From Patescibacteria group bacterium (GTDB lineage: Bacteria > Patescibacteriota > Minisyncoccia > Phycocordibacterales > XYD1-FULL-46-19), in the NCBI GenBank assembly GCA_048617235.1, contig JBMCHT010000002.1, positions 63,899-127,898 on the forward strand: a stretch of 64,000 nt of DNA, read 5' to 3'. The position numbers and the translations under genes were made by a program. Of this stretch, positions 4,752 to 50,398 are shown in pieces; within the stretch, counting starts at the first letter, position 1, and each line of letters begins with the position of its first letter. Under the pieces are notes generated by a model. That model had not been told where the DNA came from. It did not search any database and saw only the letters and a program-made list of their open reading frames with translations.

Positions 4752-4753
4752 AA

Positions 4754-8768: not shown

Positions 8769-8814
8769 AATAATTAGGCATCTCGGTCTTGCGCGATACC
8801 TCTACTTGCTCGTG

Positions 8815-8885
8815 CTGCCCGGCAGGGACTCGAACCCCGATTTCTTGGACCAAAACCAAGCGTCCTGCCATTAGACGACCGGGCA
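8815..8885 (-). tRNA. tRNA-Gln (anticodon TTG)
   Basis: Hand-folded: acceptor TGCCCGG/CCGGGCA, anticodon arm CTTGG-TTTTGGT-CCAAG, T-arm CGGGG-TTCGAGT-CCCTG. No CCA is encoded. Confidence 0.8.
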
Positions 8886-14178: not shown

Positions 14179-15042
14179 TTATTCTTGATCCAAAAATTTA
14201 TAAAATACTCGATTACCAAAACGAAAATCCAAATACTCCAGGCCACCGGCTTCCTTTAAACCGGTCTGGAATTCCGGCACTTGCATCACCGTTTTAATAT
14301 CGGCGGCTAAATTAGTTAAAGAACGATCAATATTTAAATATAATTTCCATTCCGACCAATTAACTGTTTGTTGGGGTGCTAATATGAAAGCAAAATCTTT
14401 TTCGGATAAATATTCCGCTCCCAGAAGCCAAAAATCTCCCAAACCAGCCTCGGTTAAAACAACCGGTAATTTCTGAGCCATAATTTGCAAATCGGCAAAA
14501 ACAGCCGGTTCCGGTTCAGTCCCCGATCCGGCTAAAAAATGAAATACTACTCCCGAAGAATAAATCGGGGCTGATTTTAAATTGTAACCACTTTTATTTA
14601 TAAAATAACAGTTTTGTCTGTTTTCCCAATTACCGGCACATTTGACCATTGTTGGGTTATCTTCTTTTACTTCTATTACCAACTCTCGCCGCCAAGGTCT
14701 TACACCAATTTTAATATCATTTAAATTGAAATATTTATTTGATAATTCTTTTTTTAATTCTCGTTTTGGTGGCCACCACCAGATATTGTTAGGCCATTTA
14801 GTTATTGACCGTTCACCTTCTAAAACCGTTTGAATTAAATCCGCCATGACCGGCAAAGAACTCTGCCGATTACCACTGATGGCTACCATTTTAATTTCAG
14901 ATAACCGGTGATTGGCAAATTGATGAAGTAAAAAAACAAAACCGCCACCAAAAAGCAAAAGAATCAAAAAAAATATTAATAATTTCTTTTTGTTAAATAA
15001 TCGTCTTAAACCGGAAGAAAAAAACAAACGGCGACGGCGCAT
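14179..15042 (-). CDS. FtsQ/DivIB-like cell-division protein (POTRA)
   Basis: An N-terminal basic segment and TM, then IKMVAISGNRQSSLP ... IGVRPWRRELVIEVKEDNP, matching the FtsQ POTRA pattern. Confidence 0.45.
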   Translation of the reverse strand: MRRRRLFFSSGLRRLFNKKKLLIFFLILLLFGGGFVFLLHQFANHRLSEIKMVAISGNRQSSLPVMADLIQTVLEGERSITKWPNNIWWWPPKRELKKELSNKYFNLNDIKIGVRPWRRELVIEVKEDNPTMVKCAGNWENRQNCYFINKSGYNLKSAPIYSSGVVFHFLAGSGTEPEPAVFADLQIMAQKLPVVLTEAGLGDFWLLGAEYLSEKDFAFILAPQQTVNWSEWKLYLNIDRSLTNLAADIKTVMQVPEFQTGLKEAGGLEYLDFRFGNRVFYKFLDQE

Positions 15043-22002: not shown

Positions 22003-22121
22003 AATATTTATTATTATGAATCTATTTTAACATATTTTAATTAAGAACAAAAAACAATCGGCTAAAAACCAAATTTTGGTTCGCGTAATTTTTAATATTA
22101 ATTTCTTTTAGATTTAAATTG

Positions 22122-22203
22122 TGCCGGAGGAGGGACTTGAACCCTCACCTCTTGCGAGACACGATTTTGAGTCGTGCGCGTCTACCAATTCCGCCACTCC
22201 GGC
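22122..22203 (-). tRNA. tRNA-Leu (anticodon CAA), long variable arm
   Basis: Hand-folded: acceptor GCCGGAG/CTCCGGC, anticodon arm CACGA-CTCAAAA-TCGTG. Confidence 0.8.
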
Positions 22204-22342: not shown

Positions 22343-23146
22343 ATGAAATACACTATTAAAGATTTTAGAAAAGAGTTTCCCAATGATGATGTTTGTTTGG
22401 ACTACATCTTAAATAAGAAATATCCTGACTTAAAGGGCTATTACCGAGTAAAGGAGCGTAAATGTTATGCTAACTCTAAAGGTGGGCAAATTCACCCTGT
22501 TAAAGGCACTATTTTTGAGAAGTCTAGCACCCCTCTAACACTATGGTTTTACGCTATTTTCCTATTCTCTGTCTCTAAAAACGGAGTATCAGCTAAAGAG
22601 TTAGAGCGACAATTAGGTGTAACTTATAAATGTGCTTGGCGTATGGCTCACCAGATTAGAAAGCTAATGGATCAAGACGGTGATTTACTTATTGGTACAG
22701 TAGAAGTAGATGAGACTTATTTTGGTAAAAAAGGAAACCACGAGCAAAAGTTTAAAAACAAAACCGCTTTAATGGGTATGGTAGAGCGACAAGGTAAAGT
22801 TAGGGCTAATACTATTACCGCTCGTGAAGCTCATATCATCCTAAACCAGATTAAAGAAAATATCGGTCTAAACGCCAATATTATGTCTGATGAGTTTTCA
22901 ATTTATAAAAAGCTAAGTAAGTTAGGATATTCAAGTCAAAGAGTAAAACACGGAAAGAAAACCTATGTCCGAGGGAATGTTCACACCAATACTATTGAGG
23001 GCTTTTGGGGACAGTTAAAGCGAGGAATACGAGGGACTTATACTTTCGTATCAGCTACTCATTTACAGGCTTATGTGGACGGGTTTGCTTTTCGGTATAA
23101 TTATCGTCACGCTCCTGTTTTTGCGGAGTTGATTTCTCGTGTTTAA
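22343..23146 (+). mobile_element. IS1595-family (ISXO2-like) DDE transposase
   Basis: The C-terminal signature HTNTIEGFWGQLKRGIRGTYTFVSATHLQAYVDGFAFRYNYRH, the DDE region EVDETYFGKKG...MGMVERQGKV and an N-terminal Cys/His-poor zinc-ribbon-like segment. I could not resolve the terminal inverted repeats by eye. Confidence 0.8.
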
Positions 23147-26512: not shown

Positions 26513-28009
26513 TTATTTTGACCACCAAGAATTTACACCGGAATCTCGACCGGTTATCTTTGCTGTAACCGAAGCCAAGGAATCTCCAATTCCACCGGCC
26601 ACATATCTTTTATACCACTGTGGATCCAAATTTTTTCTAATTAGAGAATTGAATTTTAATAAACTAATATCCATCTTGGTTGCTCGCATAACTCTCAAAT
26701 AGATTTTTATATCCTGTCTCAATTGATCTAATTTACCTTCCGCTAAAATATTTTCTCCTTGATAATTCTTAGCCGACAAATCTTTATATTCACGAGTTAA
26801 TCTTGCTTTTAATTTACCAATCACGGCTTCAGTTATTTGATCTTCTATTTCACTATTTTGCTTTTCTCTCTCTTTAAATATTTCGGTTTTAATATTTTCT
26901 TTAAAAGAATCAATTTCTTCCTCGGTTAAATCGTCCGGGGTTTTTTCTCTTTCTACACCCTTATCTTCATCATAAATTTTTTCTTTTTCTTCTTCGGGTT
27001 TTTCTTCAGAAAATAATTCTTTAATCATTTCATTTAGCTTGGCATCTACTTCATCGTCTGTTATTTCCCTTTGCTCATCTATAAATAAACTAACTCTTTC
27101 TTTTATTAATTTATCAGCTTCATTGGTTACTTGACGAAATCTTTCAGCTTGGCGAATATTTATTTTATTTAAAGAAAAATAACTTTTAATTTGATTAAAA
27201 CGCCTTTTTAAAGCTTTAGGTTGCAAATTCTCCATTTTTTCTTTTGTCTTTTTAACTAAATCAGCAAAAACGGACTTTTCCATAACCTCATTATCTTCAG
27301 CCGATTCTGATGATTCTTTCTTATCTGCCATTTCTTCTTCTGTATCAGCTACTATTTCTTTTTCCGCCACAAATAATTCCCAAACCTTATTTCTAATACC
27401 ATAGGTTCTGGTGATGGTGTTATTTTGAAAAAGTCCATCCCTTATTTTTTCAGCCGATCTTACATTCTCTATTAAAGTAATAAGATTTGTTGCTGAATAG
27501 ACCCCTGTTGTTCCTTTAATTTTTCCTATTTCTCTTAAAACATCATATAATTCTTCAAAACTTTTAGTTTGGTTTATTTTTTCTGCATTCTCAACCTCAA
27601 TTTGATTTTCTTTTTCTAAATCTTCGGTTGTTTTTGGTTCTGCCGGTTTAAACTCTTCTTCTTTAGATTTAAAATAGGAGATACCTTTTCCTTCTAAAAG
27701 ATCTTTTTTTCTTTCCCACTCCCTGATTTCTTCTTCCAACCGAAGTACATTTTGTTCCTGAAGTGAAGAGCCGGTCTCCCCCATTAATTTATAAGGCGGA
27801 TTATGTTTACCGGATTCCCAATCTTGTAATTCTTGCCTTAAATTATTTATTTTACCTTTTATTTCATCTAAAGATTCAGAAGGGAAATTCTCCGGTGCCA
27901 TTTCTTTTATAACCTCGCCCGCTTTATTGGGATCATAACCATGATTTATTTCTTCTTGATCTTCATCTTCTTGATTATATAAAAAAGAATTTTCAGTATT
28001 AATTTTCAT
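26513..28009 (-). CDS. Hypothetical highly charged (E/K-rich) protein
   Basis: 498 aa at about 30% GC, with a conserved-looking C-terminus YKRYVAGGIGDSLASVTAKITGRDSGVNSWWSK. Confidence 0.5.
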   Translation of the reverse strand: MKINTENSFLYNQEDEDQEEINHGYDPNKAGEVIKEMAPENFPSESLDEIKGKINNLRQELQDWESGKHNPPYKLMGETGSSLQEQNVLRLEEEIREWERKKDLLEGKGISYFKSKEEEFKPAEPKTTEDLEKENQIEVENAEKINQTKSFEELYDVLREIGKIKGTTGVYSATNLITLIENVRSAEKIRDGLFQNNTITRTYGIRNKVWELFVAEKEIVADTEEEMADKKESSESAEDNEVMEKSVFADLVKKTKEKMENLQPKALKRRFNQIKSYFSLNKINIRQAERFRQVTNEADKLIKERVSLFIDEQREITDDEVDAKLNEMIKELFSEEKPEEEKEKIYDEDKGVEREKTPDDLTEEEIDSFKENIKTEIFKEREKQNSEIEDQITEAVIGKLKARLTREYKDLSAKNYQGENILAEGKLDQLRQDIKIYLRVMRATKMDISLLKFNSLIRKNLDPQWYKRYVAGGIGDSLASVTAKITGRDSGVNSWWSK

Positions 28010-29236: not shown

Positions 29237-31963
29237 TTAAACAGCTGTTTTTTGAATCTCTCGACCGGCTTGTTTGGTTTTATAACTTTTTTTCAATTCT
29301 ATTTTAGGCTGATTATCTTTAAGAGAAATCTTGACTATACCACCATTTTCCACTTGCCTGGCTATTATAAATTCTGCCACTTTGTTTAAAATTTTACTTT
29401 GCAATAATCTTTTTATCGGTCGCGCTCCGTATTCGGGATTATAACCGGCCTGAGCCAAATGCTCTGTTAATTCTTTGGTTACTTCCAATTTTATACCTTT
29501 AAGAGCCAATCGTTTTTTAATAATATCCATTTGTAGTTCCACAATTTCTGTAATAATAGATTGAGGTAAGGGTTTAAAGACAACTGTCTCATCCAAACGA
29601 TTCAAAAACTCCGGTCGAAAATGGTTTTTGAGAGAATCATTTATTTTTTCTTTAGCCGTTTCAAAATCCGATTCATCCGTCTTTTCCGAAAAACCAACTT
29701 GTTTAAATTGTTTTAAATATTGGCTACCAATATTGGAGGTCATAATAATAATGGTATTTTTAAAATTAACCACTCGTCCTTTATTATCTGTTAGGCGACC
29801 ATTATCTAAAACTTGAAGCAGAATATTAAAAACTTCCGGATGAGCTTTTTCTATTTCATCTAATAATAAAACTGAATATGGTCGGTGACGAATAGTTTCA
29901 GTTAACTTTCCACCTTCATCATAACCGACATAACCTGGAGCCGAGCCGATTAATTTGGAAATTGAATATTTTTCCATATATTCGGACATATCCAAACGAA
30001 CCAAGGCTTTTTCATCATCAAATAAAAATTCAGCCAAAGTTCGAGCTAATTCAGTCTTACCAACCCCAGTCGGACCTAAAAAGATAAAAGAACCAATTGG
30101 CCGATCAGGATCAGCTACTCCGGCTCGAGATCGCCGAACAGCTTCGGTTACTTTTTGAATCGCTTCTTCTTGACCTCTAACCCTTTTACTCAAATGATCT
30201 TCCATTTGAGATAATTTTTCCGATTCGGATTTTAGCATCCGAGTAACCGGCACCCCTGTCCAGCGAGCTACCACTTTGGCTATCTCTTCTTCCCCTACTT
30301 CTTCTTTTAATATTTGTCTGGCACTCTGCAAGCGCTTTAATCTGGCTTCTTTATTTTTTAAATCTTTTTCAGCTTCCGGAATTAAACCATAACGAATTTC
30401 AGCCGCTCTGGTTAAATCCGAACGAACTTCCGCTTGACCGGCTTCTGCTCTCCAAGCTTCCGCTTTTTCTTTTATTTTTCTAATTTCTCCAATTAAAGAT
30501 TTTTCATTTTGCCATTTCAATTCCAACTCTCTGGTTTTTTCATGTAAATTACCAATTTCTCTTTCCACTTCTTTTAATCTACTGCGATTACCGGCATTGC
30601 CTCTTTTGGCTTCTATTTCTTTCTTTAGAGCCGCTTTTTCTACCTCTAATTTCATTATCTCGCGACCGGAATTTTCTAATTCAACCGGCTTGTTTTCCAA
30701 TTCCAATCTTAAAGCCGAAGAGGCTTCATCTACTAAATCTATAGCTTTATCCGGCAAAAATCTATCTGTAATATACCGACGAGACAAATCTACCGCCATG
30801 ATTAAAGCATCATCGGTAATTTTTACCCCATGATGAAGCTCATACCTTTCTTTCAAACCTCGCAAAATAGCCAAAGTATCATCCGGAGAAGGTTCTTCCA
30901 CAAAAATTGGCTGAAAACGACGAGTAAGGGCTTGGTCTTTTTCTATATGTTTTTGATATTCTTTCAAAGTGGTAGCACCAATCACACGCAATCCTCCTCG
31001 AGCCAAAGCCGGTTTTAACATATTAGAGGCATCAATAGCTCCTTCGGCTGAACCGGCTCCCACTACTGTATGCAACTCATCAATAAACATAATAATTCTA
31101 CCCTCAGCTCTTTCTATTTCTTTTAAAATATTTTTTAACCTATCTTCAAATTCACCTCGATACTTAGTCCCGGCCAACAATAAACCCATATCTAAACAAA
31201 CTATATCTTTATCTGCTAATGACTCCGGAGCATCACCTAAAACAATTCTATTAGCTAAACCTTCAGCAATAGCCGTTTTACCGGTACCGGCTTCACCAAT
31301 TAAAATAGGATTATTTTTTGTGCGTCGAGCTAAAATTTCCATAATCCTTCTAATTTCCTTATCCCGACCAATTACCGGATCTAATTTATCTTGCCGAGCC
31401 AAGTCTGTCAGATTTTTAGTGTATCGTTCTATAGCTTTAAATTTTTTGGGCTGATCTTCCATCGAAACATCACCTGATCGTAATTCTTCCACTACCTGCC
31501 AAACCGCTTCTTTGGTTAAACGAAAACGATTCAAAACCTCACGAGCCGGACCGGGTATATCTAATAAAGCCAATAATAAATGTTCAGTAGAGATAAACTC
31601 ATCATTTAAGTGATTAGCGGTTTTACCGGCGGAATCGAATACTCGAACCAATTCCGGTGTTATATATATCTGATAAGAAGGGGCCGACACTGTTCCGGTT
31701 TCTGTAGACTCCATGGTATCTAAAAGATAATCTGTCATCATAATAGAATCCACTTCCAGACGATCTATAATAGACACTACCGTACTTTCTTCAATCAAAA
31801 GTAAAGCCGCCAACAAATGTATGGGATTAACATGGTTTTGACCGCGTTCTATAGCCAGCTCATGAGCTTTACGAATAGCCTCTCTGGCTTTAGCGGTATA
31901 ATTGTGAAAAGGGGGCATTGACATAATACTTTTATTATAAAACAAAAACCTAGTTAGAGTCAA
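29237..31963 (-). CDS. clpB: ATP-dependent chaperone ClpB
   Basis: Two AAA+ modules (GEAGTGKTAI, GPTGVGKTEL), the middle coiled-coil and a Clp N-domain. Confidence 0.95.
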   Translation of the reverse strand: MTLTRFLFYNKSIMSMPPFHNYTAKAREAIRKAHELAIERGQNHVNPIHLLAALLLIEESTVVSIIDRLEVDSIMMTDYLLDTMESTETGTVSAPSYQIYITPELVRVFDSAGKTANHLNDEFISTEHLLLALLDIPGPAREVLNRFRLTKEAVWQVVEELRSGDVSMEDQPKKFKAIERYTKNLTDLARQDKLDPVIGRDKEIRRIMEILARRTKNNPILIGEAGTGKTAIAEGLANRIVLGDAPESLADKDIVCLDMGLLLAGTKYRGEFEDRLKNILKEIERAEGRIIMFIDELHTVVGAGSAEGAIDASNMLKPALARGGLRVIGATTLKEYQKHIEKDQALTRRFQPIFVEEPSPDDTLAILRGLKERYELHHGVKITDDALIMAVDLSRRYITDRFLPDKAIDLVDEASSALRLELENKPVELENSGREIMKLEVEKAALKKEIEAKRGNAGNRSRLKEVEREIGNLHEKTRELELKWQNEKSLIGEIRKIKEKAEAWRAEAGQAEVRSDLTRAAEIRYGLIPEAEKDLKNKEARLKRLQSARQILKEEVGEEEIAKVVARWTGVPVTRMLKSESEKLSQMEDHLSKRVRGQEEAIQKVTEAVRRSRAGVADPDRPIGSFIFLGPTGVGKTELARTLAEFLFDDEKALVRLDMSEYMEKYSISKLIGSAPGYVGYDEGGKLTETIRHRPYSVLLLDEIEKAHPEVFNILLQVLDNGRLTDNKGRVVNFKNTIIIMTSNIGSQYLKQFKQVGFSEKTDESDFETAKEKINDSLKNHFRPEFLNRLDETVVFKPLPQSIITEIVELQMDIIKKRLALKGIKLEVTKELTEHLAQAGYNPEYGARPIKRLLQSKILNKVAEFIIARQVENGGIVKISLKDNQPKIELKKSYKTKQAGREIQKTAV

Positions 31964-32792
31964 CTAAAGTAGTTAAGGCTTCTTGATTAATAGTTAATTG
32001 TTGACCCCAAATCAAACCCAAAATGTCACCTTGAATATTTACAATCGAGCCACCTATATTATTTTCAGTAGCGGCATTGGTTCTGAATCCGCCTCCGGCT
32101 GAAGCCGGACCGGAAGACATTAAAGCGGAAACAATACTGACTGATACTTGATGGCCACTACTGCCGGAACCGATACCAATTACCGTCTGACCAATAACCG
32201 GACTATCATCACTCCACTCCAAAGTAGGTATATCTTCCCACATACTAATTAATTCGTCATCAGATGAATCTAAAAATAAAACAACTATTCCGTTGTCTTT
32301 TTCTGTTTTTACAGGAAAGCGTTGACCGGTTTCCGTCACCGCTTCCAATTTAATTATTTCCTTTTCCAAATCAAAATGCTTACTCACTACCAAATTTTGA
32401 TTATCAATCTTAACTTTAAAAGCAGTATTTGTCCAAATCTCTTTTATCTCTGTTTCTGTCTTATCTGTTTCTTCTTCCTCTTCATCAGGTTCTACTTCAA
32501 TCTCAACTGTAGCCACTAAAGCCATGATTGATGGTGAAACTTTATTAATAGCTTTAACAATTAATTCTTCTTCAGTTACCACCATTGGTACTTCTTGAAC
32601 AACTGTCGTTACTTCTGGCTCCTCAGGCACCACTTTTTCCACTGTCCTTTCTACCACTCGATTAACTGTTTGAGAAACTCCGGTTGGTGCCTGATCCATT
32701 AAAGATACGGTTACAATTCCGGTAGCGATTGAAGTAACAAAACTAATCAATAAGGTTAAAAGAATTATTTGGTTTTTGTTTAGCTCTTCCAT
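31950..32792 (-). CDS. Hypothetical membrane-anchored protein with a degenerate trypsin-like C-terminal region
   Basis: An N-terminal TM; the C-terminal IGIGSGSSGH...NNIGGSIVNIQGDILGLIWG resembles the GDSGGP region of S1 peptidases but lacks the Ser. It overlaps the clpB start by 14 nt. Confidence 0.4.
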   Translation of the reverse strand: MEELNKNQIILLTLLISFVTSIATGIVTVSLMDQAPTGVSQTVNRVVERTVEKVVPEEPEVTTVVQEVPMVVTEEELIVKAINKVSPSIMALVATVEIEVEPDEEEEETDKTETEIKEIWTNTAFKVKIDNQNLVVSKHFDLEKEIIKLEAVTETGQRFPVKTEKDNGIVVLFLDSSDDELISMWEDIPTLEWSDDSPVIGQTVIGIGSGSSGHQVSVSIVSALMSSGPASAGGGFRTNAATENNIGGSIVNIQGDILGLIWGQQLTINQEALTTLVDSN

Positions 32793-37543: not shown

Positions 37544-37616
37544 GCCCCGTTAGCTCAGTTGGTAGAGCAGTTGCCTCTTAAGCAAACGGTCGGGGGTTCA
37601 AATCCCTCACGGGGCA
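37544..37616 (+). tRNA. tRNA-Lys (anticodon CTT)
   Basis: Hand-folded: acceptor GCCCCGT/ACGGGGC, anticodon loop CTCTTAA, T-arm GGGGG-TTCAAAT-CCCTC. Confidence 0.75.
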
Positions 37617-37712
37617 CTTTTTTGTTTGACTTTTACCCAAAAAGTTGTATAATTATAAACAGAAACTGGTTGTCGAGCAATAACTGCTCGGCTTTGACAA
37701 AGGAGAAAAAAG

Positions 37713-38744
37713 ATGTGGGAAATTTTTGTGGGAATAATCTTGGCTATCATTCTGACTTCCCCTTTGGAGGTCTGGATTCTGGCTTCTTTCAATCTGGGCT
37801 TTACTTTCATTCGTGAGGGTGAGGCTCGGGCTGTCTTAGTTGGTGACTCATTCCATCGAATCATCATGGCCTACACTGGCCGGGTGATCCTTGAAACCCC
37901 GGTCATGGTGGCTCATTACAAACAAGCCACCGGCCACCAGGAAGCGGATTTGTGGGATATCGTCGAGGCAACAGACGATTTCCCAGAACCGGCTAAAAGC
38001 CGACTGGAGAAATGGTTCGGAATCCGGTGGTACGGCCTGCCACCGTTCCGAAAGATTTTGTCCTACTCCTTCAAGTGGACCGCTCCGGTCCATAATGAGG
38101 GTGAATCCAAAATGCGACCGAGCACAGAAACCCTGTCGCATATCTTCGTCAAAGAGACGTTGTATGCCGACAAGGTTCGGCAGGCGGAGACTTCGGAGGC
38201 ACTCCCAATGGATGTTGAGTACCGGGTTTTGCTTCGGGTCAAAAACCCTTACAAAGCCCTCTTCCAAGTCCATCGCTGGTTGGATGCCACCTTGGATGTG
38301 GTGGGATCAGCCATTAGGGAGTATATTAGTGGAAAAAAATATGAGGATCTCCTGGAGACCTCAGACAAAATTTTTTCAGAGGAAGTACTTAAAAATATCC
38401 CCGAAATCACCAACACCCGCTACGGGGTGGAGGTGCTGAATCTTCGTCTGACAGACATATCGCCGGCCTCAGCCCAAGCCGAAGAATACCGCTTGGCCTC
38501 GACCAAGAAATATGTCGAGGAGCGAGCCGGAGAGGCGGCAGAGGCTCGCGCTAAGGGTGAGTCCGAAGCCATCAAGTTGATGGGTGACGGTGAGGCCAAA
38601 GCCATCAAAGCTAAGGGCCAAGCTCAGGCTGAGGCCTGGCAGGCTCAAGTCAGCCAAGCCGGACCACCTTTGGCCGGTGCCCTCAACCAACTGGTTGAGG
38701 GAATCACCAAGGCAATAATCTCCGTCAGAAAGGGAGGAGAATAG
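37713..38744 (+). CDS. SPFH/band-7 (stomatin/HflK/C-like) membrane protein
   Basis: An N-terminal TM, an SPFH core (EYRVLLRVKNPYKALFQV...) and an Ala/Glu-rich C-terminal coiled coil (EAAEARAKGESEAIKLMGDGEAKAIKAKGQAQAEAW). GC is about 50–60%. Confidence 0.75.
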   Translation: MWEIFVGIILAIILTSPLEVWILASFNLGFTFIREGEARAVLVGDSFHRIIMAYTGRVILETPVMVAHYKQATGHQEADLWDIVEATDDFPEPAKSRLEKWFGIRWYGLPPFRKILSYSFKWTAPVHNEGESKMRPSTETLSHIFVKETLYADKVRQAETSEALPMDVEYRVLLRVKNPYKALFQVHRWLDATLDVVGSAIREYISGKKYEDLLETSDKIFSEEVLKNIPEITNTRYGVEVLNLRLTDISPASAQAEEYRLASTKKYVEERAGEAAEARAKGESEAIKLMGDGEAKAIKAKGQAQAEAWQAQVSQAGPPLAGALNQLVEGITKAIISVRKGGE

Positions 38745-38746
38745 TA

Positions 38747-39577
38747 ATGACTACGCTATTTCTTGTCTTGGGGTGGACAGCCATACTGCTCACTCTGGTT
38801 GGGGTGATTGCCATCAAAAATCGCCCTTCCACCTCCTCCAACCAAACGGAGGAGGTAGCAACCGAAACAACGAACAGTGGTAACTGGCTCGGGAGAGTCT
38901 ATCGCCACCCCGCAACTCCCTTCGTGGTAGCCGGGCTAGTCGGACTGGGGTTGTTTATCGGCTTCTGGCCCAGCGCCACTTGGCCGATAATCAAAACCGG
39001 TGCCTGGTGGCTAGCTTTGGCCACGGTTGGGTTTGTGGTCTTCGGCTATATCAACATCCCCACGGAAGCCGAGACCACCGCTTCTCGGAGGCGAGTGGCC
39101 GGGTGGTTCAGACGCTATGCAGTCTTAGCTGTTATCTTCGGCTTGTTATTCGGCTTGTGGTCCAACCACAGCCCGGTAACAGTTGAAGAGGCAGTGGAGG
39201 CTGTCGGCAACTGGTCACCGCCGACAATTTCTCTTTTTTCTTCCTCTCCTGAGAGAGGAAGAACAAGAGAAAACCGCCCCCCGGCACCTCCTCCACCACC
39301 ACCGGAGCCATTCCGAGTTGATCGGATAACGGCTCCAACCGTCGGCTGGTCCGAGAAAATCGAGTTCAACACTCGACCTTGGACCAGGAGGTTCCAACTG
39401 AAGGCCGAGGTGGCGGCGAAAGATGTACCAGTCTTGATTAAAGCCGGCGGGCGACTGATCAAGACAACCCTTAACAAGCGATCGGAGCAAAAAGAAGATA
39501 TTGGGAATGTTCCCCATCTTCAAATTCGCTCCGAGAGCGGCAGACCGTTAACGATATTGGTCAAACGATATCGTTAA
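38747..39577 (+). CDS. Polytopic membrane protein (4 TM), poly-Pro linker and C-terminal beta-rich domain; possibly an NfeD-like partner of the SPFH protein
   Basis: 276 aa starting 3 nt after the SPFH stop. Four hydrophobic helices, then PPAPPPPPPEP, then a roughly 90-aa soluble tail. Confidence 0.5.
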   Translation: MTTLFLVLGWTAILLTLVGVIAIKNRPSTSSNQTEEVATETTNSGNWLGRVYRHPATPFVVAGLVGLGLFIGFWPSATWPIIKTGAWWLALATVGFVVFGYINIPTEAETTASRRRVAGWFRRYAVLAVIFGLLFGLWSNHSPVTVEEAVEAVGNWSPPTISLFSSSPERGRTRENRPPAPPPPPPEPFRVDRITAPTVGWSEKIEFNTRPWTRRFQLKAEVAAKDVPVLIKAGGRLIKTTLNKRSEQKEDIGNVPHLQIRSESGRPLTILVKRYR

Positions 39578-39656: not shown

Positions 39657-39899
39657 TTAGGAACAACTAAATCCGAAAGTAGCACAAATAGACCACATAA
39701 TTCCAAAAGCACTCAAAGCTATAAACAAACCAATCAAGCCGTAAATTATATGTTGAGAACCGGTTTGTCTTTTTTCAGCATTATCTGACCCCCAGATAAA
39801 CAAAACCACTCCAAACACAAAATAAACCACTCCTACCGCTATCGCCAACATCATTAAGGGATTAATTATATTGGCAATTATGTTATCTATTATTTCCAT
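39657..39899 (-). CDS. VirB2/TrbC-like pilin-family small membrane protein (paralogue 7, shortest)
   Basis: The family core INPLMMLAIAVGVVYFVFGVVLFIWGSDNAEKRQTGSQHIIYGLIGLFIALSAFGIMW. Confidence 0.6.
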   Translation of the reverse strand: MEIIDNIIANIINPLMMLAIAVGVVYFVFGVVLFIWGSDNAEKRQTGSQHIIYGLIGLFIALSAFGIMWSICATFGFSCS

Positions 39900-39931
39900 T
39901 AATTAATCAGTTTTTGATTGAAATTAATTAA

Positions 39932-40309
39932 CTAGCTAGTCTCTTCACCAAAAGAAGGAAGCTCATCTGGGACTCCGGTCTCACCCCCTAGAGTTTCACT
40001 TAAAATGCCAACCAAACCCCAAGCGGCCACCATTACAAACAATACTACAATACCCATTATAATTATATTGATACCCGTACTTCTTTTTTCCGGATCTCCG
40101 GCAGCAGTTAAATAAGTAATTAACCCCCACAAGAAGACCAAGAAACCAAGACCAATTAAAATTGGAACCAAACTATTGACCCAACCCAAGATAGCGCTGA
40201 ACAAACTATCTACATCCGTTATATCACTACCGCCACCATCTTGAGCTAAAGCCACATTGCCTACCAATAAAGCAACTGAAAATAAAGCAACTTTTATTTT
40301 ATTCTTCAT
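39932..40309 (-). CDS. VirB2/TrbC-like pilin-family protein (paralogue 6)
   Basis: A signal peptide ending ...ALAQD, a Gly-rich segment, then the core LVPILIGLGFLVFLWGLITYLTAAGDPEKRSTG...IMGIVVLFVMVAAWGLV. Confidence 0.6.
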   Translation of the reverse strand: MKNKIKVALFSVALLVGNVALAQDGGGSDITDVDSLFSAILGWVNSLVPILIGLGFLVFLWGLITYLTAAGDPEKRSTGINIIIMGIVVLFVMVAAWGLVGILSETLGGETGVPDELPSFGEETS

Positions 40310-40434
40310 ATAATTTTTATTAATTATAAACTTATAATTTTATTAAAGGTTTTTAATAATTAAAACCTATTATTTGGTAATTATAACAATTACCAAATAA
40401 TAAAACAATAATTAATCTTCATACTGTTAATAAC

Positions 40435-40839
40435 TTACATAACCTCACCACCTGACTGGGGAATGGGAACATCGCCCCCACTTAAATTAAAAGTGGTTAT
40501 TAAAACATTAACCAACCCCCAAACAGATAACATCACAAATAAACCAACCAAACCGTAGATTATCATCTGAGAGCCCTTAGACATTTCTTCAGCGTTGCCT
40601 CCGGCTTTAACATACTTGACTACTCCAAACATAAAAACCACTACTGCTATTGCTATAGCTAAAGAAACTAAAGGATTTAAAATATCCGGAATAATCACCC
40701 CTTCTATAAGTTCTTTTAACGACTGACCACCTCCACCTGCAGGATCCTGAGCTTTAGCCGAAGTAGCCAATACCCCAAACACCAAAACCACTGGGATTAT
40801 TGCCATTAATCTAACCGTTATATTTCTTAAAACTATCAT
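40435..40839 (-). CDS. VirB2/TrbC-like pilin-family protein (paralogue 5)
   Basis: A signal peptide ending ...AKAQD, a GGGG segment, then the core NPLVSLAIAIAVVVFMFGVVKYVKAGGNAEEMSKGSQMIIYGLVGLFVMLSVWGLV. Confidence 0.6.
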   Translation of the reverse strand: MIVLRNITVRLMAIIPVVLVFGVLATSAKAQDPAGGGGQSLKELIEGVIIPDILNPLVSLAIAIAVVVFMFGVVKYVKAGGNAEEMSKGSQMIIYGLVGLFVMLSVWGLVNVLITTFNLSGGDVPIPQSGGEVM

Positions 40840-40862
40840 AAATATTGATGTTTACTTTTTAA

Positions 40863-41321
40863 TCATTGTTGTGAACCACCGCTGACATCAGGGGGAGAAA
40901 TAGCAGGGCTACCAAGATTAAAAGTGGTTTCTAAAACTTTCACAAATCCCCAAACAGATAACATTACAAACAAAACCACAATACCATAGACCATCAACCT
41001 GCCACCTTCGCTTACTTTTTCATCATTCCCGCCGGCGGAGACATATTTAACCAAACCCCACAAAAAGATCACGAACCCAACCGCTACCAAAAGAATTACT
41101 AAAGGATTTAAAATTCCATCAATTAAAGTATCCACTAAGTCGGAAAAGCCTGTACCACCACCGGTATCCCAATCAGTTGGATAAGCTCCACCCCCAGCTT
41201 CACCTTCACCTTCACCCTGAGCCAAAACTGAAACCGGATTCCAAATTAAAAAAGATAAAGAAACAATAAACAAAAATACCTTAGTCCAAGTTGGGGATTT
41301 TTTTATATTTTGCATATTCAA
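40863..41321 (-). CDS. VirB2/TrbC-like pilin-family protein (paralogue 4)
   Basis: A signal peptide, a Gly/Glu-rich segment, then the core NPLVILLVAVGFVIFLWGLVKYVSAGGNDEKVSEGGRLMVYGIVVLFVMLSVWGFV. Confidence 0.6.
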   Translation of the reverse strand: MNMQNIKKSPTWTKVFLFIVSLSFLIWNPVSVLAQGEGEGEAGGGAYPTDWDTGGGTGFSDLVDTLIDGILNPLVILLVAVGFVIFLWGLVKYVSAGGNDEKVSEGGRLMVYGIVVLFVMLSVWGFVKVLETTFNLGSPAISPPDVSGGSQQ

Positions 41322-41347
41322 GATATTTATTATTAATATTTATTTCT

Positions 41348-41644
41348 TTAGTATAGAGTTTGTGTTCCCCCGGTTGAACGAGGAATATCAACTTCCTCTG
41401 GAGTGAATCCAAAAGTGGTTTCCAATATCTTCACAAATCCCCAAGCAGATACCATCACAAACAAAACCACAATCCCATAAACCATTAATTTCCCTCCCTC
41501 GGCCAGTTTTTCATCATTCCCGCCGGCGGAGACATATTTAAGCAAACCCCACAAAAAAACTACAAAAGCTAAAGCGACCAATAAAATAATTAAAGGATTT
41601 AAAACACGCTCAATTAAAAACAAAATAAGACCATAAATATCCAT
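41348..41644 (-). CDS. VirB2/TrbC-like pilin-family protein (paralogue 3, lacks an N-terminal signal region)
   Basis: Its core is nearly identical to paralogue 4 (NPLIILLVALAFVVFLWGLLKYVSAGGNDEKLAEGGKLMVYGIVVLFVMVSAWGFV). Confidence 0.55.
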   Translation of the reverse strand: MDIYGLILFLIERVLNPLIILLVALAFVVFLWGLLKYVSAGGNDEKLAEGGKLMVYGIVVLFVMVSAWGFVKILETTFGFTPEEVDIPRSTGGTQTLY

Positions 41645-41688
41645 AAAAATATAATAATTAACTTAATAATGAATAATCATACCACTTT

Positions 41689-42072
41689 TTATAATGTATC
41701 AACAGTGGCTTGAATTAAATTAATAATAGCAAAAGCACCCAAAACCACCCCTGCTCCGGCTAAAGTCCAGATTATAGCGGTCTTGGCTTTGGTTATTTTT
41801 TCTTGATTACCTTGAGCCATTACTAACATCACTCCGGATATTATAATAAACAAAGCCACTACCGGAGCACCTAAGGTTACCACTCCTTCTAAAACCGCTT
41901 CTATTAATTCTACCAAACTCTCCGCAGTTAAAGGATTATTTATCCGGACACTACTGCCACCTTCCACCGCTCTCACTTTAAAAACAGGAATCAGGATTAA
42001 TAATATTGATAAACAGTAACCTTTAAGTATATTTTTTATAGTTGTTTTCTTCATATAATTATTATATACCAA
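41689..42072 (-). CDS. Divergent member of the same small 2-helix membrane protein family (paralogue 2)
   Basis: A signal/TM, then VVALFIIISGVMLVMAQGNQEKITKAKTAIIWTLAGAGVVLGAFAII, the same helix-loop-helix layout. Confidence 0.45.
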   Translation of the reverse strand: MVYNNYMKKTTIKNILKGYCLSILLILIPVFKVRAVEGGSSVRINNPLTAESLVELIEAVLEGVVTLGAPVVALFIIISGVMLVMAQGNQEKITKAKTAIIWTLAGAGVVLGAFAIINLIQATVDTL

Positions 42073-42081
42073 AAAAATAAA

Positions 42082-42471
42082 TTAACCGAATATATCTAAA
42101 ACAGAATTACCCTCTTCCACTAAAAGAGTAACTATAAATTTAACAATCAACCAAGCGGCTAAAGAAATAAACAAACCGGTCAAAGCGGTTTTAATTATAT
42201 TCTTACCCTTATCAATATAAGCAGGATTGGCAGCATTAATAGCCCACATAATTCCACCTATAACTATAGCCAAAGTAGCTACCGGGATAGCAATATAAGT
42301 AGTTAAAAAAGAAACAATATTATCTGCTAAAGTAAATAAATCATTAAAAGTGCAATTTACCCCCTCACAAGGAATTAATTCTCCACTCTCTTGACCTTTG
42401 GTAACAGAAGGCCAAAAAAGAAGAAGTCCAACCGGAATAGTATAAAAAGATTCTTTAATTTTATTAAACAT
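42082..42471 (-). CDS. Divergent member of the same family (paralogue 1), Cys-containing
   Basis: The ORF track runs to 42531, but an internal Met start at 42471 (MFNKIKESF...) removes the 56-nt overlap with the upstream gene. The core reads IAIPVATLAIVIGGIMWAINAANPAYIDKGKNIIKTALTGLFISLAAWLIV. Confidence 0.45.
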   Translation of the reverse strand: MFNKIKESFYTIPVGLLLFWPSVTKGQESGELIPCEGVNCTFNDLFTLADNIVSFLTTYIAIPVATLAIVIGGIMWAINAANPAYIDKGKNIIKTALTGLFISLAAWLIVKFIVTLLVEEGNSVLDIFG

Positions 42472-42475
42472 AATT

Positions 42476-43774
42476 TTAATCAAAAAGATTACTAATTTGA
42501 CGCCTGGCTGTTTCCAAGGCTGCTTCCGCACTCTGACCTCCAGCTGCCACTGTTTCTATCATATTCTGGAAAACACCATTTGTGGTATGAGGATCGGGAT
42601 CTAACCAAGTTCTGGCCAGTAAAGCCGACCGATAAAAAACAGACATAAAAGGATTAGAATGGCCTTGACCTAATCTGGATCGACCGGCACTCGGTAGTCC
42701 TATAGCTTCTTCCCATAAATTACTATAACGATCAGAGGCTAAAATACCAGCAGCCTTAAAAGCGGCTTGCGGATTAACCGAATTAAGATTAACCGCCACT
42801 GCATAAAAACGACCGGCAGTGGCCTTGATCGTAGCCGAACTGTTTTGAGGGAAAAAGTGTACATCCATATTTAAATTGGGATTACCACGACGCAGAGAAT
42901 CCAATTCTGAAGCAAAACCAAAATAATTAGCTAAATTACCGGACAAAAACATCTGTTTATCGTTAGGTAAAGTCCTATTCCAAGAATATTCAAATCTGTT
43001 AGTGTTGGCAAAACGAGAATAAAACTCTAAAGCGGCTCGACCTCGACTATCGGCTTCTCTATTAGTTGACCCGGTAACCAATCTATCTCCCACTTGTAAT
43101 AAAAGAGAAACTACTACATCTTTAGCGTTGGTAATATTACTATATTGCCCCATAGCCACAGCGCTTTGCTTTACCGTTAATCTATCCTCTATTATATTTA
43201 ATCTTTTTAAAACAGACTCAGCTCCGGCCGGACCGTCTATCAATTCCACCCAAGTGGCCGGCGGACCGGCCACTCCCGACTGATTATATATATCTCGATT
43301 ATAAAACATAACCAAAGGATCAACTAGTAAAGGTCGAGCTAGGGATCCTTCCTCGGTTAAAAAAATATCAAAACCATCTGCATAAGTGGTTCTAAAATCT
43401 CGTTCAGAAAAACTGGAATAAGGCAGAATCCAAAAAGTATCTCGGTACCGCCCCAACCAAGTGTCATTAATAATAATTAGATCCGGCCCTCGGCCTTGAA
43501 TTCTCTCTCTGACATAATCTTGTTCTAACTTAGACCCGGTTTTACCAACATAATTAATTTTAACCAGATTATCATTTTGGCTATTAATTACGTGAATCAA
43601 TTCGCTAACTTGAGAAGAAGGCCATGGTCCCCAAACAGTTACACTACCCATAAATTCTGTATCGGCACTTCTACCAATAGGAATCCAACCGGCGAAAACA
43701 GCCACTGCAAAAAGTAGAACACAAGCAAAAAAAACCAAAACTCCAATTTGAAAAGAATTATATTGATCTCCCAT
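42476..43774 (-). CDS. Membrane-anchored extracellular solute-binding-protein-like protein (SBP_bac_1-like)
   Basis: 432 aa with an N-terminal TM anchor, then VTVWGPWPSS...KINYVGKTG...GRGPDLIIINDTW resembling family-1 SBPs. No ABC permease or ATPase genes are adjacent. Confidence 0.4.
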   Translation of the reverse strand: MGDQYNSFQIGVLVFFACVLLFAVAVFAGWIPIGRSADTEFMGSVTVWGPWPSSQVSELIHVINSQNDNLVKINYVGKTGSKLEQDYVRERIQGRGPDLIIINDTWLGRYRDTFWILPYSSFSERDFRTTYADGFDIFLTEEGSLARPLLVDPLVMFYNRDIYNQSGVAGPPATWVELIDGPAGAESVLKRLNIIEDRLTVKQSAVAMGQYSNITNAKDVVVSLLLQVGDRLVTGSTNREADSRGRAALEFYSRFANTNRFEYSWNRTLPNDKQMFLSGNLANYFGFASELDSLRRGNPNLNMDVHFFPQNSSATIKATAGRFYAVAVNLNSVNPQAAFKAAGILASDRYSNLWEEAIGLPSAGRSRLGQGHSNPFMSVFYRSALLARTWLDPDPHTTNGVFQNMIETVAAGGQSAEAALETARRQISNLFD

Positions 43775-43779: not shown

Positions 43780-44313
43780 TTATTCCGGCTTAGTGCCTAA
43801 TAACCCATAATGATGAGCCCCGGCCATAAAATCTCGATCCAATTCAAACCCGGCTTCAGTCATAATCTCTTCAGCTTTTATTTTATTAACCACTTGTTGT
43901 GATACAGGACCTAGGCCACCAAAAGAATCTTGCCAATCTATTATTAAAATTTTACCGCCGGGTGCTAAAACTCGAAAAGCCTCTCTCATTAAAATATATT
44001 TAGATTCACTTTGAAATAAAACATTAGCCAAAACCACTGCCGTCACCGAAGCCTCAGCCAAACCGGAACCATTGGGTTTATCTAAATTTCCTCTAATTAC
44101 CTCAATATTGGTTAAACCCGACTCCCTAGACTCAGCTTTTAATTTATCTAAAATATCTTTTTGAACATCTACGGCATAAACTCTACCCTCCGACCCAACA
44201 GCCTCAGCTAAAGCCAAAGAATAAGCCCCAACACCACAACCAAAATCCGCCACTTTTTGACCGGAGGTCAAATGTAATTCAGATACATTATTCTGGGGTT
44301 GAGCAAAATCCAT
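43780..44313 (-). CDS. Class I SAM-dependent methyltransferase
   Basis: Motif I VADFGCGVGAYSL and the post-I acidic residue. Confidence 0.7.
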   Translation of the reverse strand: MDFAQPQNNVSELHLTSGQKVADFGCGVGAYSLALAEAVGSEGRVYAVDVQKDILDKLKAESRESGLTNIEVIRGNLDKPNGSGLAEASVTAVVLANVLFQSESKYILMREAFRVLAPGGKILIIDWQDSFGGLGPVSQQVVNKIKAEEIMTEAGFELDRDFMAGAHHYGLLGTKPE

Positions 44314-44373
44314 TACTTTTATTATACCAAAGTAATAACTACAAGGGCAAACTTTAAAGAGGGATAAAAAATA

Positions 44374-49831: not shown

Positions 49832-50398
49832 ATGAATCAAGAATTAAAACAATCGGTTTTTGAAATAGTTCGTTTTATTTTATTAACCCTGATCATTGTC
49901 ATCCCCATTAGAGCTTATGTGGCTCAACCTTTTATTGTTAGCGGGGTTTCTATGATTCCCACATTTGATAATAATGAATATTTAATTATAGATGAACTGT
50001 CCTATCATTTTAGAGACCCTCAACGTGGCGAAGTAATAGTTTTTCGTTTTCCCAACGATCAAAATAAATTTTTTATAAAAAGAATAATAGGATTACCCAA
50101 AGAAACAATCAATATTCAAAACGGGAAAATATCTGTTACTTCTCCCTCGGGCGACACTTGGGAAATGAATGAACCTTACATCGAAGAAACAGAAATAAAT
50201 AGTCAAAAACAATCTTTTACTTTATCAGAAGATGAATATTTAGTCTTAGGAGACAACCGTCAACATAGTTCAGATTCTCGAGTATGGGGTCCGGTTGTAA
50301 AAAATTTAATTGAAGGTCGAGCTCTTGTTAGATTATTCCCTTTAAGTCATATCAGTTGGCGACCGGGAGATTTCAGTCAACATTACCTTAATAATTAA
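49832..50398 (+). CDS. lepB: Signal peptidase I
   Basis: The catalytic Ser box SGVSMIPTF, the Lys box FIKRIIGLPKE and LVLGDNRQHSSDSR. Confidence 0.9.
   Translation: MNQELKQSVFEIVRFILLTLIIVIPIRAYVAQPFIVSGVSMIPTFDNNEYLIIDELSYHFRDPQRGEVIVFRFPNDQNKFFIKRIIGLPKETINIQNGKISVTSPSGDTWEMNEPYIEETEINSQKQSFTLSEDEYLVLGDNRQHSSDSRVWGPVVKNLIEGRALVRLFPLSHISWRPGDFSQHYLNN

Follow-up and report, generated by a model that had tools for sequence, protein, structure and literature searches.

A conserved operon of T4SS pilin-like genes behind a solute-binding-protein-like gene in a Patescibacteria genome

The window, that is, the whole stretch of 64,000 nucleotides that was analysed, contains seven consecutive ORFs on the minus strand between positions 39657 and 42531, which encode small VirB2-like membrane proteins (p1 to p7 in the order of transcription). 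All seven exceed the gathering score (26.6) of the PF18895 T4SS_pilin profile, with 32.3–41.0 bits and E values from 1e-7 to 2e-10. Judged by these scores, the seven above-threshold matches cannot be due to chance and all array proteins belong to the PF18895 family, which bears out the seven tandem genes of a T4SS pilin-like family described in an earlier note on this DNA. The common core read in that note is visible in the alignment (NPL..hydrophobic helix..KYV.AGGN.EK..G...IYG.V.LFVM.S.WG), and its two-helix layout is found in the AF2 (AlphaFold) model of p5, a helical hairpin (H49-78/H83-116, pLDDT ~90). The signal peptide, however, which it had assigned to all seven proteins, is present in only five, p3 and p7 being without one.

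The first gene, p1 (42082..42471; class A, position 1), encodes 129 aa when read from its ATG (42471), within a maximal ORF that extends to 42531. This ATG, which is also the NCBI call, is most likely the start; it lies 4 nt past the stop of the preceding solute-binding-protein (SBP)-like gene, and thus the two genes do not overlap. Besides its signal peptide and two hydrophobic helices, the product carries a conserved pair of Cys residues (LIPCEGVNCTF); it scores 35.4 bits with PF18895 and 91 bits with its class HMM (cls1). With PF04956 (TrbC/VirB2) it remains below the cut-off (23.6 against 27.9 bits), and p2–p7 show no match in the Pfam search. The same profile is matched at E<=0.01 by 29 of the 60 positional orthologues of p1 (best 3.7e-8), and by these matches class A is the one closest to TrbC/VirB2. 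The second gene, p2 (41689..42072; class B, position 2), has a signal peptide and 127 aa as a maximal ORF (121 aa in the NCBI call, which starts at the ATG of 42054), with 34.5 bits for PF18895 and 106 bits for cls2. Its 37.4 bits with the NCBIfam pilin-like model Mbov_0395, below the cut-off of 40, are the best of the weak matches to this model, found for six of the seven window proteins.

Three copies of class C follow, namely p3 (41348..41644; 98 aa, no signal peptide; PF18895 32.3 bits, cls3 89 bits), p4 (40863..41321; 152 aa, signal peptide; 37.5 and 96 bits) and p5 (40435..40839; 134 aa, signal peptide ..SAKA/QD; 36.1 and 94 bits). The linker of p4 is long and Gly/Glu-rich and that of p5 Gly-rich; the length of p4 rests on the TTG start of the maximal ORF, its actual start being uncertain. 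The penultimate gene, p6 (39932..40309; class D), encodes 125 aa, signal peptide included (..ALA/QD; PF18895 41.0 bits, cls4 103 bits), and the last one, p7 (39657..39899; class E), 80 aa without a signal peptide (33.7 bits, cls5 79 bits). Both p3 and p7 are maximal ORFs which begin right at the first hydrophobic helix, with 44 and 32 nt of room upstream, respectively. The missing signal peptide is typical of class E, and the last-position gene has just two hydrophobic segments in 43 of the 47 five-gene arrays.

The gene preceding the array (42476..43774, minus strand) encodes a 432-aa protein whose N-terminus has a TM helix (residues 7-27) and which matches Pfam SBP_bac_1 (E 3e-11), in agreement with its earlier description as SBP-like. 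Its AF2 model has a pLDDT of 93.8, and the best Foldseek matches in the PDB are oligosaccharide SBPs (E ~1e-20, TM 0.6-0.7). The product is a membrane-anchored, MalE-fold SBP-like protein, and it accompanies the pilin array as a conserved partner. It has the fold and the Pfam families (SBP_bac_1 and SBP_bac_8) of the cluster-B/D oligosaccharide SBPs of ABC importers (MalE, TMBP, Lmo0181), but no ABC permease or ATPase gene was found near it in the operon, it has an N-terminal TM anchor, and it is followed by, and sometimes fused to, pilin genes. The array comes after the SBP-like gene in 78 of the 79 loci, with mostly -4 to +15 nt from the SBP-like stop to the class A start. In two genomes (L007 and L010) the SBP-like gene is fused to the first pilin (class A), and enlarged class-A pilins of relatives carry Fn3-like ectodomains N-terminal of the hairpin. 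This link of a pilin array to an SBP is apparently undescribed so far.

Directly upstream lies a gene for a class I SAM-dependent methyltransferase (43780..44313, minus strand; 177 aa; Pfam Methyltransf_31/25/11 and Ubie_methyltran) without a signal peptide, a gene conserved at the head of the module in most relatives. Of the 86 SBP-bearing loci that were fetched, a set including the window and a few duplicates, 80 have a homologue immediately ahead of the SBP-like gene, and it is missing from the other six (L020, L033, L041, L049, L054 and L059). Among the loci with the methyltransferase is L005, a distant one which has no gyrA next to it. Of 79 non-redundant Paceibacteria loci, 78 keep the order gyrA / SAM-methyltransferase / SBP-like / pilin array, and the last three members are read as one operon.

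Across these ~79 loci, which formed the comparison set, the modal array has five genes (46 loci), while arrays of six (15), seven (10) and eight genes (1) also occur; seven is thus common, and copy number ranges from 2 to 8 between genomes. Among 47 arrays with five pilin domains (a first pilin fused to the SBP included), the best match in other genomes is found at the same position in 90, 90, 70, 80 and 90% of cases for positions 1 to 5, respectively. For the window proteins, the best match is position 1 for p1 in 63 of 64 genomes, position 2 for p2 in 69 of 73 and the last position for p7 in 66 of 75. GyrA is only 58–64% identical between genomes that keep these positional classes. By such best matches, each position is its own deeply conserved orthologous class, and the array is not a freely diversifying set of paralogues. 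The class HMMs assign the window array as A, B, C, C, C, D, E, with a 125-nt gap between the three C genes and D. Seen at the sequence level, the array is an ancient, ordered five-class set in which only the middle class (C) has been duplicated in the window; its three copies in the source genome give the seven genes. The third and fourth genes had been considered near-identical and recent, but p3 and p4 are 67% identical over 90 aa (71.5% nucleotide identity, dS 0.74, dN/dS 0.37), and by these values they are the youngest pair, yet neither near-identical nor recent. Mutual identity of p3, p4 and p5 is 49–67%, classes A and B have just 2–15 bits in common with C–E across genomes, and dN/dS is ~0.25-0.38. 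The alignment shows the extracellular N-terminal linkers and C-terminal tails as the most variable parts.

No T4SS machinery, VirB4, VirB6 and VirD4 included, was found by Pfam among 53 window ORFs, a search that covered all seven pilins and 45 of the other ORFs of at least 120 aa. A tblastn search of the window with the Patescibacteria VirB4, TrbL_3, PrgI and TraC-like set gave no match either, and T4SS machinery was likewise not found in the 10 kb right of the window. The absence reported in the earlier note is therefore real, but the lack of VirB4 within 20 kb is no sign of a missing T4SS: in all six related array-bearing genomes found in Table S1 of PMC12102498, VirB4 is encoded elsewhere in the genome, and none has it within ~8 kb of the array. 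In the same study the pilin gene lies away from virB4 in 813 of 1,948 assemblies. At locus L089, pilins of the PF18895 family form part of a T4SS cluster of the canonical Patescibacteria type (pilins, TrbL_3, PrgI, TraC-like, VirB4); they resemble classes A and B and differ from C, D and E. The window also contains a signal peptidase I gene (49832-50398).

The array, treated as unusual in the earlier note, is of a kind already published: 441 arrays of 2–11 VirB2-like pilin genes are catalogued in 383 Patescibacteria assemblies (Quinonero-Coronel et al. 2025, PMC12102498), and seven genes fall within this range. In Southlakia epibionticum ML1, the pilin series of the T4SS cluster SEML1_0006-0019 is essential (Wang et al. 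2023, PMC10633639; also PMC12857230). The window array shares with those of PMC12102498 and PMC10633639 the PF18895 family, which defined them, the tandem layout, low pairwise identity, a Patescibacteria host, a chromosomal location and a context without relaxase. On the contrary, it differs from published T4SS-cluster arrays in lying by gyrA, after a methyltransferase and an SBP-like gene and outside a T4SS cluster, and its maximum pairwise identity is 67% against the 54% maximum reported. Neither PMC12102498 nor PMC10633639 describes the five-class positional orthology, the coupling and fusion to the SBP or the conserved gap inside the array; the novelty is an ordered five-class set within a conserved operon behind a sugar-binding-protein-like gene. 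Patescibacteria T4SSs have no relaxase and are repurposed (PMC12102498, PMC10633639), which agrees with the earlier opinion that classical conjugation is not involved. The supposition that the family is widespread in CPR holds as well, with 96,188 cluster representatives matching PF18895 and NCBI naming two of the window genes (p1 and p6) "pilin".

Similarly to the VirB2/TrbC/TraA conjugative pilins (PF04956, e.g., TrwL of R388), the window pilins are small, with a signal peptide, two hydrophobic helices and a short charged loop, and class A gives sub-threshold to significant PF04956 matches; no similarity to TrwL was detectable. Those Gram-negative systems have one major pilin beside VirB3/VirB4, whereas here there are five classes, no T4SS gene nearby and a monoderm host. 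Mbov_0395 and MMCAP2_0565 of Mycoplasma ICEs (NF045849) are also comparable, as 80-aa two-helix proteins of monoderm MPF-FATA-type systems, but they are single-copy inside ICE transfer clusters and all window matches are below the 40-bit curated cut-off. The operons of minor pilins and pseudopilins (FimU-PilVWXE, GspH-I-J-K) offer an analogy of ordered, conserved and non-interchangeable pilin-like genes, some with large adhesive domains. Type IV pilins, with one N-terminal helix and a globular domain processed by PilD, are unlike the window pilins in fold, family and assembly machinery.

We favor, with modest confidence, the reading that the region is a heteromeric pilin module of a Patescibacteria-type (monoderm, MPF-FATA-derived) T4SS, placed in this Paceibacteria-like genome beside gyrA and away from the VirB4/VirB6/VirB3 cluster. 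The five classes A–E are best read as non-interchangeable VirB2-like helical-hairpin proteins. The pilins would enter the membrane via Sec, five signal peptides being cleaved by signal peptidase I, while p3 and p7 may insert directly. In the membrane they would form N-out/C-out hairpins with the short Lys/Glu loop toward the cytoplasm, from which the T4SS ATPase complex encoded elsewhere in the genome could extract them and build a heteromeric surface structure resembling a pilus or a stalk. Class A, which is TrbC-like, has the Cys pair and in relatives often bears the Fn3-like ectodomains or is sometimes SBP-fused, would stand nearest the SBP-like module. The latter probably binds a glycan, of a host cell or the environment, in an adhesin or ligand-binding role. 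Against this module count the absence of a TrbC signal from classes C, D and E in the Pfam search, the difference of these three classes from the T4SS-cluster pilins of L089, and the strict linkage to the SBP-like protein and not to T4SS genes, which could indicate a separate function. To our knowledge, a filament has never been seen for this pilin family, which also counts against it.

Such a separate function could be a T4SS-independent membrane complex, in which the SBP-like protein and the five two-helix classes form a fixed envelope assembly with no polymerised pilus, for instance a ring or bundle of hairpins that senses or takes up ligands, having only its ancestry in common with T4SS pilins. 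This is unlikely in our judgement, although the operon is SBP-linked throughout and never found with VirB4/TrbL_3/PrgI in ~79 loci, and the SBP-like protein has an oligosaccharide-SBP fold with no ABC permease or ATPase genes nearby. Single polypeptides with 2–16 tandem hairpin units after one signal peptide exist, for which a bundle in the membrane is easier to picture than a pilus; the lack of a TrbC signal in classes C–E and weak fold matches to ring-forming hairpin subunits (ATP synthase subunit c, for example) point the same way. However, we know of no transporter built from an SBP and hairpin classes, PF18895 and class A are related to TrbC/VirB2, and VirB4 is kept in every checkable relative (6/6). 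Arrays of the family also lie within T4SS clusters of other Patescibacteria, and in Southlakia both such an array and the T4SS are essential (PMC10633639).

The paralogues may instead be interchangeable major-pilin variants, alternative subunits of one homopolymeric pilus serving antigenic or host-range variation. An idea of this kind has been proposed for the VirB2 paralogues of Bartonella and Anaplasma. Here the varying copy number, the duplication of class C in the window lineage and the variable extracellular linkers and tails are consistent with it, and it was suggested both in PMC12102498 and in the earlier note. Nevertheless, we regard it as quite improbable: variants driven by diversity would lose one-to-one orthology and order, and both are kept across genomes as distant as their GyrA indicates. 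The few bits common to A and B versus C–E, the class-specific conserved traits (the Cys pair in A, no signal peptide in E) and a dN/dS with no sign of diversifying selection argue in the same direction. That the proteins are unrelated small membrane proteins (holin-like, immunity or stress) whose hydrophobic hairpins mimic the pilin HMM was already unlikely and is given very little credence. The PF18895 matches are indeed strongly hydrophobic and, with an HMM of 71 positions, short; they come with many weak matches to other TM families, and fold searches do not discriminate between the options. Yet all seven exceed a curated threshold with full-length HMM coverage, the polar loop motif AGGN.EK..G is conserved and no composition effect, the NCBIfam pilin-like signal is independent, and the family sits in bona fide T4SS clusters elsewhere.

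A promoter-like site (44321..44350, minus strand; TTGCCC, an 18-nt spacer and a TG-extended TATAAT, 10/12 matches) lies past the stop of gyrA and ahead of the start of the methyltransferase gene. As a candidate promoter of the operon it has weak evidence, because promoter-like sites of the region are not above chance (30 vs 25.6). In the gap ahead of p6 (40310..40434, minus strand) there are two hairpins, a perfect one of 16 bp (40368-40402) and one of 6 bp (40348-40367), and the RNA fold of the gap has -28.5 kcal/mol (z -3.5). The hairpin itself is not conserved, but the gap is: it occurs at the same position in 73 arrays, with a median of 108 nt against medians of ~7-15 nt for the other gaps, and may serve as a terminator/attenuator or as a promoter region inside the operon.

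Seven ORFs of 80–152 aa follow one another on the minus strand from 39657 to 42531; in order of transcription they are p1 (42082–42531, maximal ORF), p2 (41689–42072), p3 (41348–41644), p4 (40863–41321), p5 (40435–40839), p6 (39932–40309) and p7 (39657–39899). Membership of the T4SS_pilin family (PF18895) was accepted at the gathering threshold of 26.6 bits with near full-length coverage of the HMM. All seven ORFs exceed this threshold, with 32.3–41.0 bits and coverage from HMM positions ~1–8 to 67–71 of 71, in agreement with the earlier note, which had proposed seven tandem members of a pilin family of this kind. The core motif written out there is also visible in the alignment of the seven proteins. 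The family architecture, a pair of hydrophobic helices with a short polar loop between them, is recovered in the hydropathy segments and in the AlphaFold2 model of p5. In detail, this model, built with 100 homologues, starts with a signal-peptide helix, from which a Gly-rich linker without order leads to a helical hairpin (H49–78/H83–116) with a pLDDT of ~90.

The start of p1 is almost certainly the ATG at 42471, 4 nt past the stop of the preceding SBP-like gene, which results in a protein of 129 aa; the same start is annotated by NCBI (P0001) under the name "pilin", and two genes of the array already bear this name there. An NCBI MAG entitled "Patescibacteria group bacterium" encodes identical proteins (locus tags ACOCU8_01580–01605), which places the host within Patescibacteria; they are also found in Logan assemblies of SRR11308339.

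Two details of the earlier note, otherwise right about the existence of the array and its family, have to be amended. A signal peptide had been assigned to all seven proteins and is found in five of them, while p3 (98 aa) and p7 (80 aa) are maximal ORFs which begin at the first hydrophobic helix. Similarly, p3 and p4 had been described as recent duplicates, nearly identical in the core. They share 67% identity over 90 aa and 71.5% at the nucleotide level, with a dS of 0.74 and a dN/dS of 0.37. They are the youngest duplicates of the array, yet not recent ones, and purifying selection acts on both of them. Among p1–p7, pairwise identity averages ~36% (21 local alignments), and p1 and p2 show 22–33% identity to every other member.

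Pilin arrays of Patescibacteria are already published, and the array of the window is an ordinary one for these bacteria. In the survey of Quinonero-Coronel et al. 2025 (PMC12102498), 3,035 Patescibacteria genomes were searched with PF18895 and PF04956 (TrbC/VirB2), and an array was defined as at least two matching genes (i-E<0.001, >50% HMM coverage) in tandem or one gene apart; p1–p7 lie in tandem with gaps of 9–125 nt. VirB2-like pilins were reported in 1,948 VirB4-positive assemblies and near virB4 in only 1,135, and 441 arrays of 2–11 pilin genes each were found in 383 assemblies (identity 25% on average and 54% at most). Adaptation to different hosts was proposed as their role (PMC12102498). 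In Southlakia epibionticum, pilins encoded in a row within the T4SS cluster are essential by Tn-seq (Wang et al. 2023, PMC10633639).

The surroundings of the array proved to be conserved. Three homologue neighbourhoods showed the common order of gyrA (or another gene), a class I SAM-methyltransferase, the SBP-like gene and the pilin array, as in the window, where the methyltransferase (43780–44313) and the SBP-like gene (42476–43774, minus strand) precede p1. Thereafter, 80 species-representative loci were fetched using the alignment of the SBP-like protein, and their pilin ORFs were mapped by an HMM of the window proteins after a single iteration. In 78 of the 79 non-redundant loci (window included), two or more pilin ORFs directly follow the SBP-like gene in the same orientation; three further loci terminate right behind the SBP-like gene and are uninformative on the array. 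Arrays of five pilins predominate (46 loci), followed by those of six (15), seven (10), two to four (6) and eight (1), and thus seven genes are unremarkable and five are the ground state. The syntenic relatives belong to the Nomura-, Yonath-, Taylor- and Zambryskibacteria and their kin, that is, Paceibacteria. Their GyrA proteins are 58–64% identical to that of the window, which makes the locus an old one.

The order of the pilins within the array is also conserved. Among the 47 arrays that contain five pilin domains (a first pilin fused to the SBP counted), the best match across genomes stays at its own position, from 1 to 5, in 90, 90, 70, 80 and 90% of the comparisons. Matches at the same position score 74–86 bits, whereas positions 1 and 2 against positions 3–5 yield 2–15 bits. 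For instance, p1 matches position 1 in 63 of 64 genomes, p2 position 2 in 69 of 73 and p7 the last position in 66 of 75. With HMMs built for the five positional classes (A to E), p1 scores 91 bits with class A, p2 106 with class B, p3, p4 and p5 89–96 with class C, p6 103 with class D and p7 79 with class E; according to these scores, the array of the window reads A-B-C-C-C / D-E.

The classes differ in more than their sequence profiles. Class A has a conserved pair of cysteines, nearly invariant across the position-1 pilins of 60 genomes (alignment A5), which may be joined by a disulfide, closing a loop in the N-terminus, the exposed part. In p1 it is a Cys-x4-Cys pair right behind the signal peptide (C35 and C40 of the 129-aa form; 42352–42369). 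In 43 of the 47 arrays, the class-E pilin has no signal peptide, so that its lack in p7 is a trait of the family and not a truncation. The gap before the penultimate gene is always long (median of 108 nt, IQR 96–131, in 73 related arrays), as opposed to medians of ~7–15 nt for all other intergenic gaps, which may point to two expression units. Its counterpart in the window is the 125-nt gap between p5 and p6 (40310–40434), with promoter-like hexamers; it folds into a perfect 16-bp hairpin (40368–40402, z = −3.5), which is not conserved in the relatives.

The SBP-like protein has 432 aa and an N-terminal TM helix. Its AlphaFold2 model (pLDDT 93.8) shows a MalE-type fold, and the nearest solved structures by Foldseek are oligosaccharide-binding proteins (E ~1e-20, TM 0.6–0.7), namely Tlet_1705, Lmo0181 with cycloalternan, a trehalose/maltose-binding protein, a mannooligosaccharide-binding protein and MalE. 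Neither in the window nor in ~79 relatives are genes for an ABC permease or ATPase found beside it, the neighbours being gyrA, the methyltransferase and the pilins. The distance from its stop to the start of the class-A pilin is −4 to +15 nt in most loci.

In two loci, the SBP and the pilin are encoded by a single ORF. These fusions (L007:7986–9668 and L010:7998–9683) match SBP_bac_1/8 and, below threshold, T4SS_pilin (22–23 bits) in Pfam, with the SBP domain at residues ~63–368 and the pilin hairpin C-terminal at ~481–540; in a third candidate (L048:7986–9506) the fusion is recognised by the family HMM built here only. Six other loci contain enlarged pilins of 445–743 aa (L002:6830–8407, L062:6980–9211, L043:9280–10773, L057:7395–8825, L031:4758–6176 and L066:11216–12685), mostly at array position 1 and, in L031 and L066, at the last position. 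Five of them carry a large Fn3-like, Pur_ac_phosph_N or CHB_HEX_C_1 ectodomain N-terminal to the hairpin, and in the exception, L066, the hairpin itself is N-terminal (residues 29–83). Class-A pilins of other genomes thus have big Fn3-like or carbohydrate-binding-associated ectodomains before the hairpin. Since the SBP or ectodomain precedes a hairpin with an inferred N-out/C-out topology, the extra domain would be extracellular, consistent with its display on the hairpin subunit. An SBP, gyrA or this methyltransferase is mentioned in none of the three key papers, and the combination did not occur in any paper of the library searched. The positional orthology, the fusion of SBP to pilin and the conserved MTase-SBP-(A-B-C / D-E) operon appear to be undescribed.

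The relation of these pilins to conjugative ones was examined through PF04956. The match of p1 (23.1–23.6 bits, E 6e-5 to 9e-5) is below the gathering threshold of 27.9 bits, and p2–p7 have no match at E≤1. Among class-A orthologues, 29 of 60 match at E≤0.01. Judged from these profile scores, class-A pilins are likely related to TrbC/VirB2, with p1–p7 themselves below family membership. No homology to the solved VirB2/TraA pilins could be demonstrated, and this class-A signal is the sole sequence bridge to them. Six of the seven also show weak, sub-threshold matches to the NCBIfam family "Mbov_0395 pilin-like" of Mycoplasma ICEs.

The family is very large, with 96,188 matches at E≤1e-3 in a profile search among 1.84 billion cluster representatives. 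The best-scoring matches of this exhaustive search are "polypilins" (P0361, P0365, P0368 and P0389), in which 2–16 tandem T4SS_pilin hairpin units follow a single signal peptide, e.g., six units in 552 aa or 16 units in 1,775 aa. A distant homologue, P0114, is located within a canonical Patescibacteria T4SS cluster, and therefore the pilin family belongs with T4SS machinery in other lineages. The cluster is a compact one in GCA_028694925.1 (L089:8702–19854), where small membrane ORFs and three T4SS_pilin genes are followed by TrbL_3 (VirB6-like, 887 aa), PrgI (VirB3-like), a TraC-like gene, VirB4 (606 aa) and, further on, a C39-like peptidase. According to the class HMMs, its pilins are closer to classes A and B than to C–E. 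For the VirB4 of this cluster, the database contains 8,000 relatives at E<1e-10; all 120 among the matches listed, Doudnabacteria and Peregrinibacteria included, are at least 54% identical to it, an unusual degree of conservation for a T4SS ATPase.

No such machinery accompanies the array of the window. Pfam was run on 53 ORFs (all pilins of the array, 45 of the remaining ORFs of at least 120 aa, and p7), and no VirB4, VirB6, VirB3, VirD4 or relaxase was found among them, which bears out the absence of nearby VirB4, VirB6 and VirD4 genes already remarked in the earlier note. Searches by tblastn with the genuine Patescibacteria T4SS set of L089 (VirB4, TrbL_3, PrgI and TraC-like) gave nothing in the window (64 kb) or in the adjoining 10 kb on its right, and over the same range the array is not part of a VirB3/VirB4/VirB6 cluster, the setting of TrbC/VirB2 pilins. 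Five ORFs of 280–498 aa (26513–28009, 31950–32792, 7824–8768 and 14179–15042 on the minus strand, and 61346–62539 on the plus strand) have no Pfam family at E≤0.001 and no T4SS likeness by tblastn. Homologues of VirB4, TrbL_3 and PrgI are likewise missing within ~8 kb of the array in ~80 loci. Six array-bearing genomes, five of Nomurabacteria and one of Yonathbacteria, are shared with Table S1 of PMC12102498, where all six are Paceibacteria and are scored "VirB4: Yes". The virB4 of Paceibacteria is placed near dnaA/dnaN (PMC12102498). GC skew drops steadily along the window, so the replication origin would be located outside it, on the right.

What gives the finding its weight is the comparison. 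Across much of Paceibacteria, the pilins compose a fixed, ordered set of five classes rather than loose paralogues, and by gene order this set would be co-transcribed with, and is occasionally fused to, an orphan gene resembling those of oligosaccharide-binding proteins. We lean towards the locus being the part of the Patescibacteria T4SS that supplies its pilins, separated from the ATPase cluster. The subunits would be heteromeric, in five specialised classes, and class A would be the one associated with the ligand-binding module, the SBP-like protein. The main rival, in our judgement an unlikely one, is a membrane assembly independent of the T4SS. It would account for the linkage to the SBP-like gene and never to T4SS genes, for the lack of a TrbC signal in classes C–E and for the existence of single proteins with 2–16 fused hairpins behind one signal peptide; on the other hand, the family belongs with T4SS machinery elsewhere.

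That the pilins are interchangeable variants serving antigenic or host-range variation seems quite improbable, as the fixed order, the one-to-one orthology, the class-specific traits and the purifying selection all argue against it. The comparative result hence counts against the published suggestion of this kind. The hypotheses offered instead are a heteromeric pilus in which each subunit class is specialised, and recognition of the ligand or host by the SBP-like module. As a tentative and somewhat doubtful extension, the Paceibacteria operon would build a heteromeric surface organelle with the MalE-fold sugar-binding module mounted on the VirB2-like subunit of class A, in effect an SBP-tipped T4SS pilus in a monoderm, or else a T4SS-independent hairpin-ring complex, in either case for the recognition of host glycans or the uptake of host-derived molecules. 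Either version, if true, would be an undescribed combination of an SBP with pilin-like subunits and a concrete handle on the function of the essential Patescibacteria T4SS.

The window itself is ordinary chromosome of low GC (~36%), with genes for replication, repair and topology (gyrA, topA, dprA, parB), translation (infB, serS, hisS), division and stress (clpB, ftsA/ftsZ) and signal peptidase I (lepB), as well as 12 tRNA genes. Beside tRNA-Lys (37544–37617), flanked by a cluster of tRNA genes on one side and by the 3′ end of the array on the other, two plus-strand genes (37713–39577) have 52–59% GC and encode an SPFH/Band-7 protein of 343 aa and a membrane protein of 276 aa with a poly-proline tract and no Pfam match. 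Other genes occupy this place in the relatives, and the pair is probably a horizontally acquired insert; an att-like repeat was looked for at it and none was found. Near tRNA-Gln (8814–8885), the region 2472–7611 encodes a ResIII helicase-type restriction subunit (759 aa), an N6/N4 DNA methylase (546 aa) and a large serine recombinase (345 aa), and is probably a mobile restriction-modification island. Near tRNA-Leu (22121–22203), an IS1595-family (ISXO2-like) DDE transposase (E 7e-35) is encoded on the plus strand at 22343–23146.
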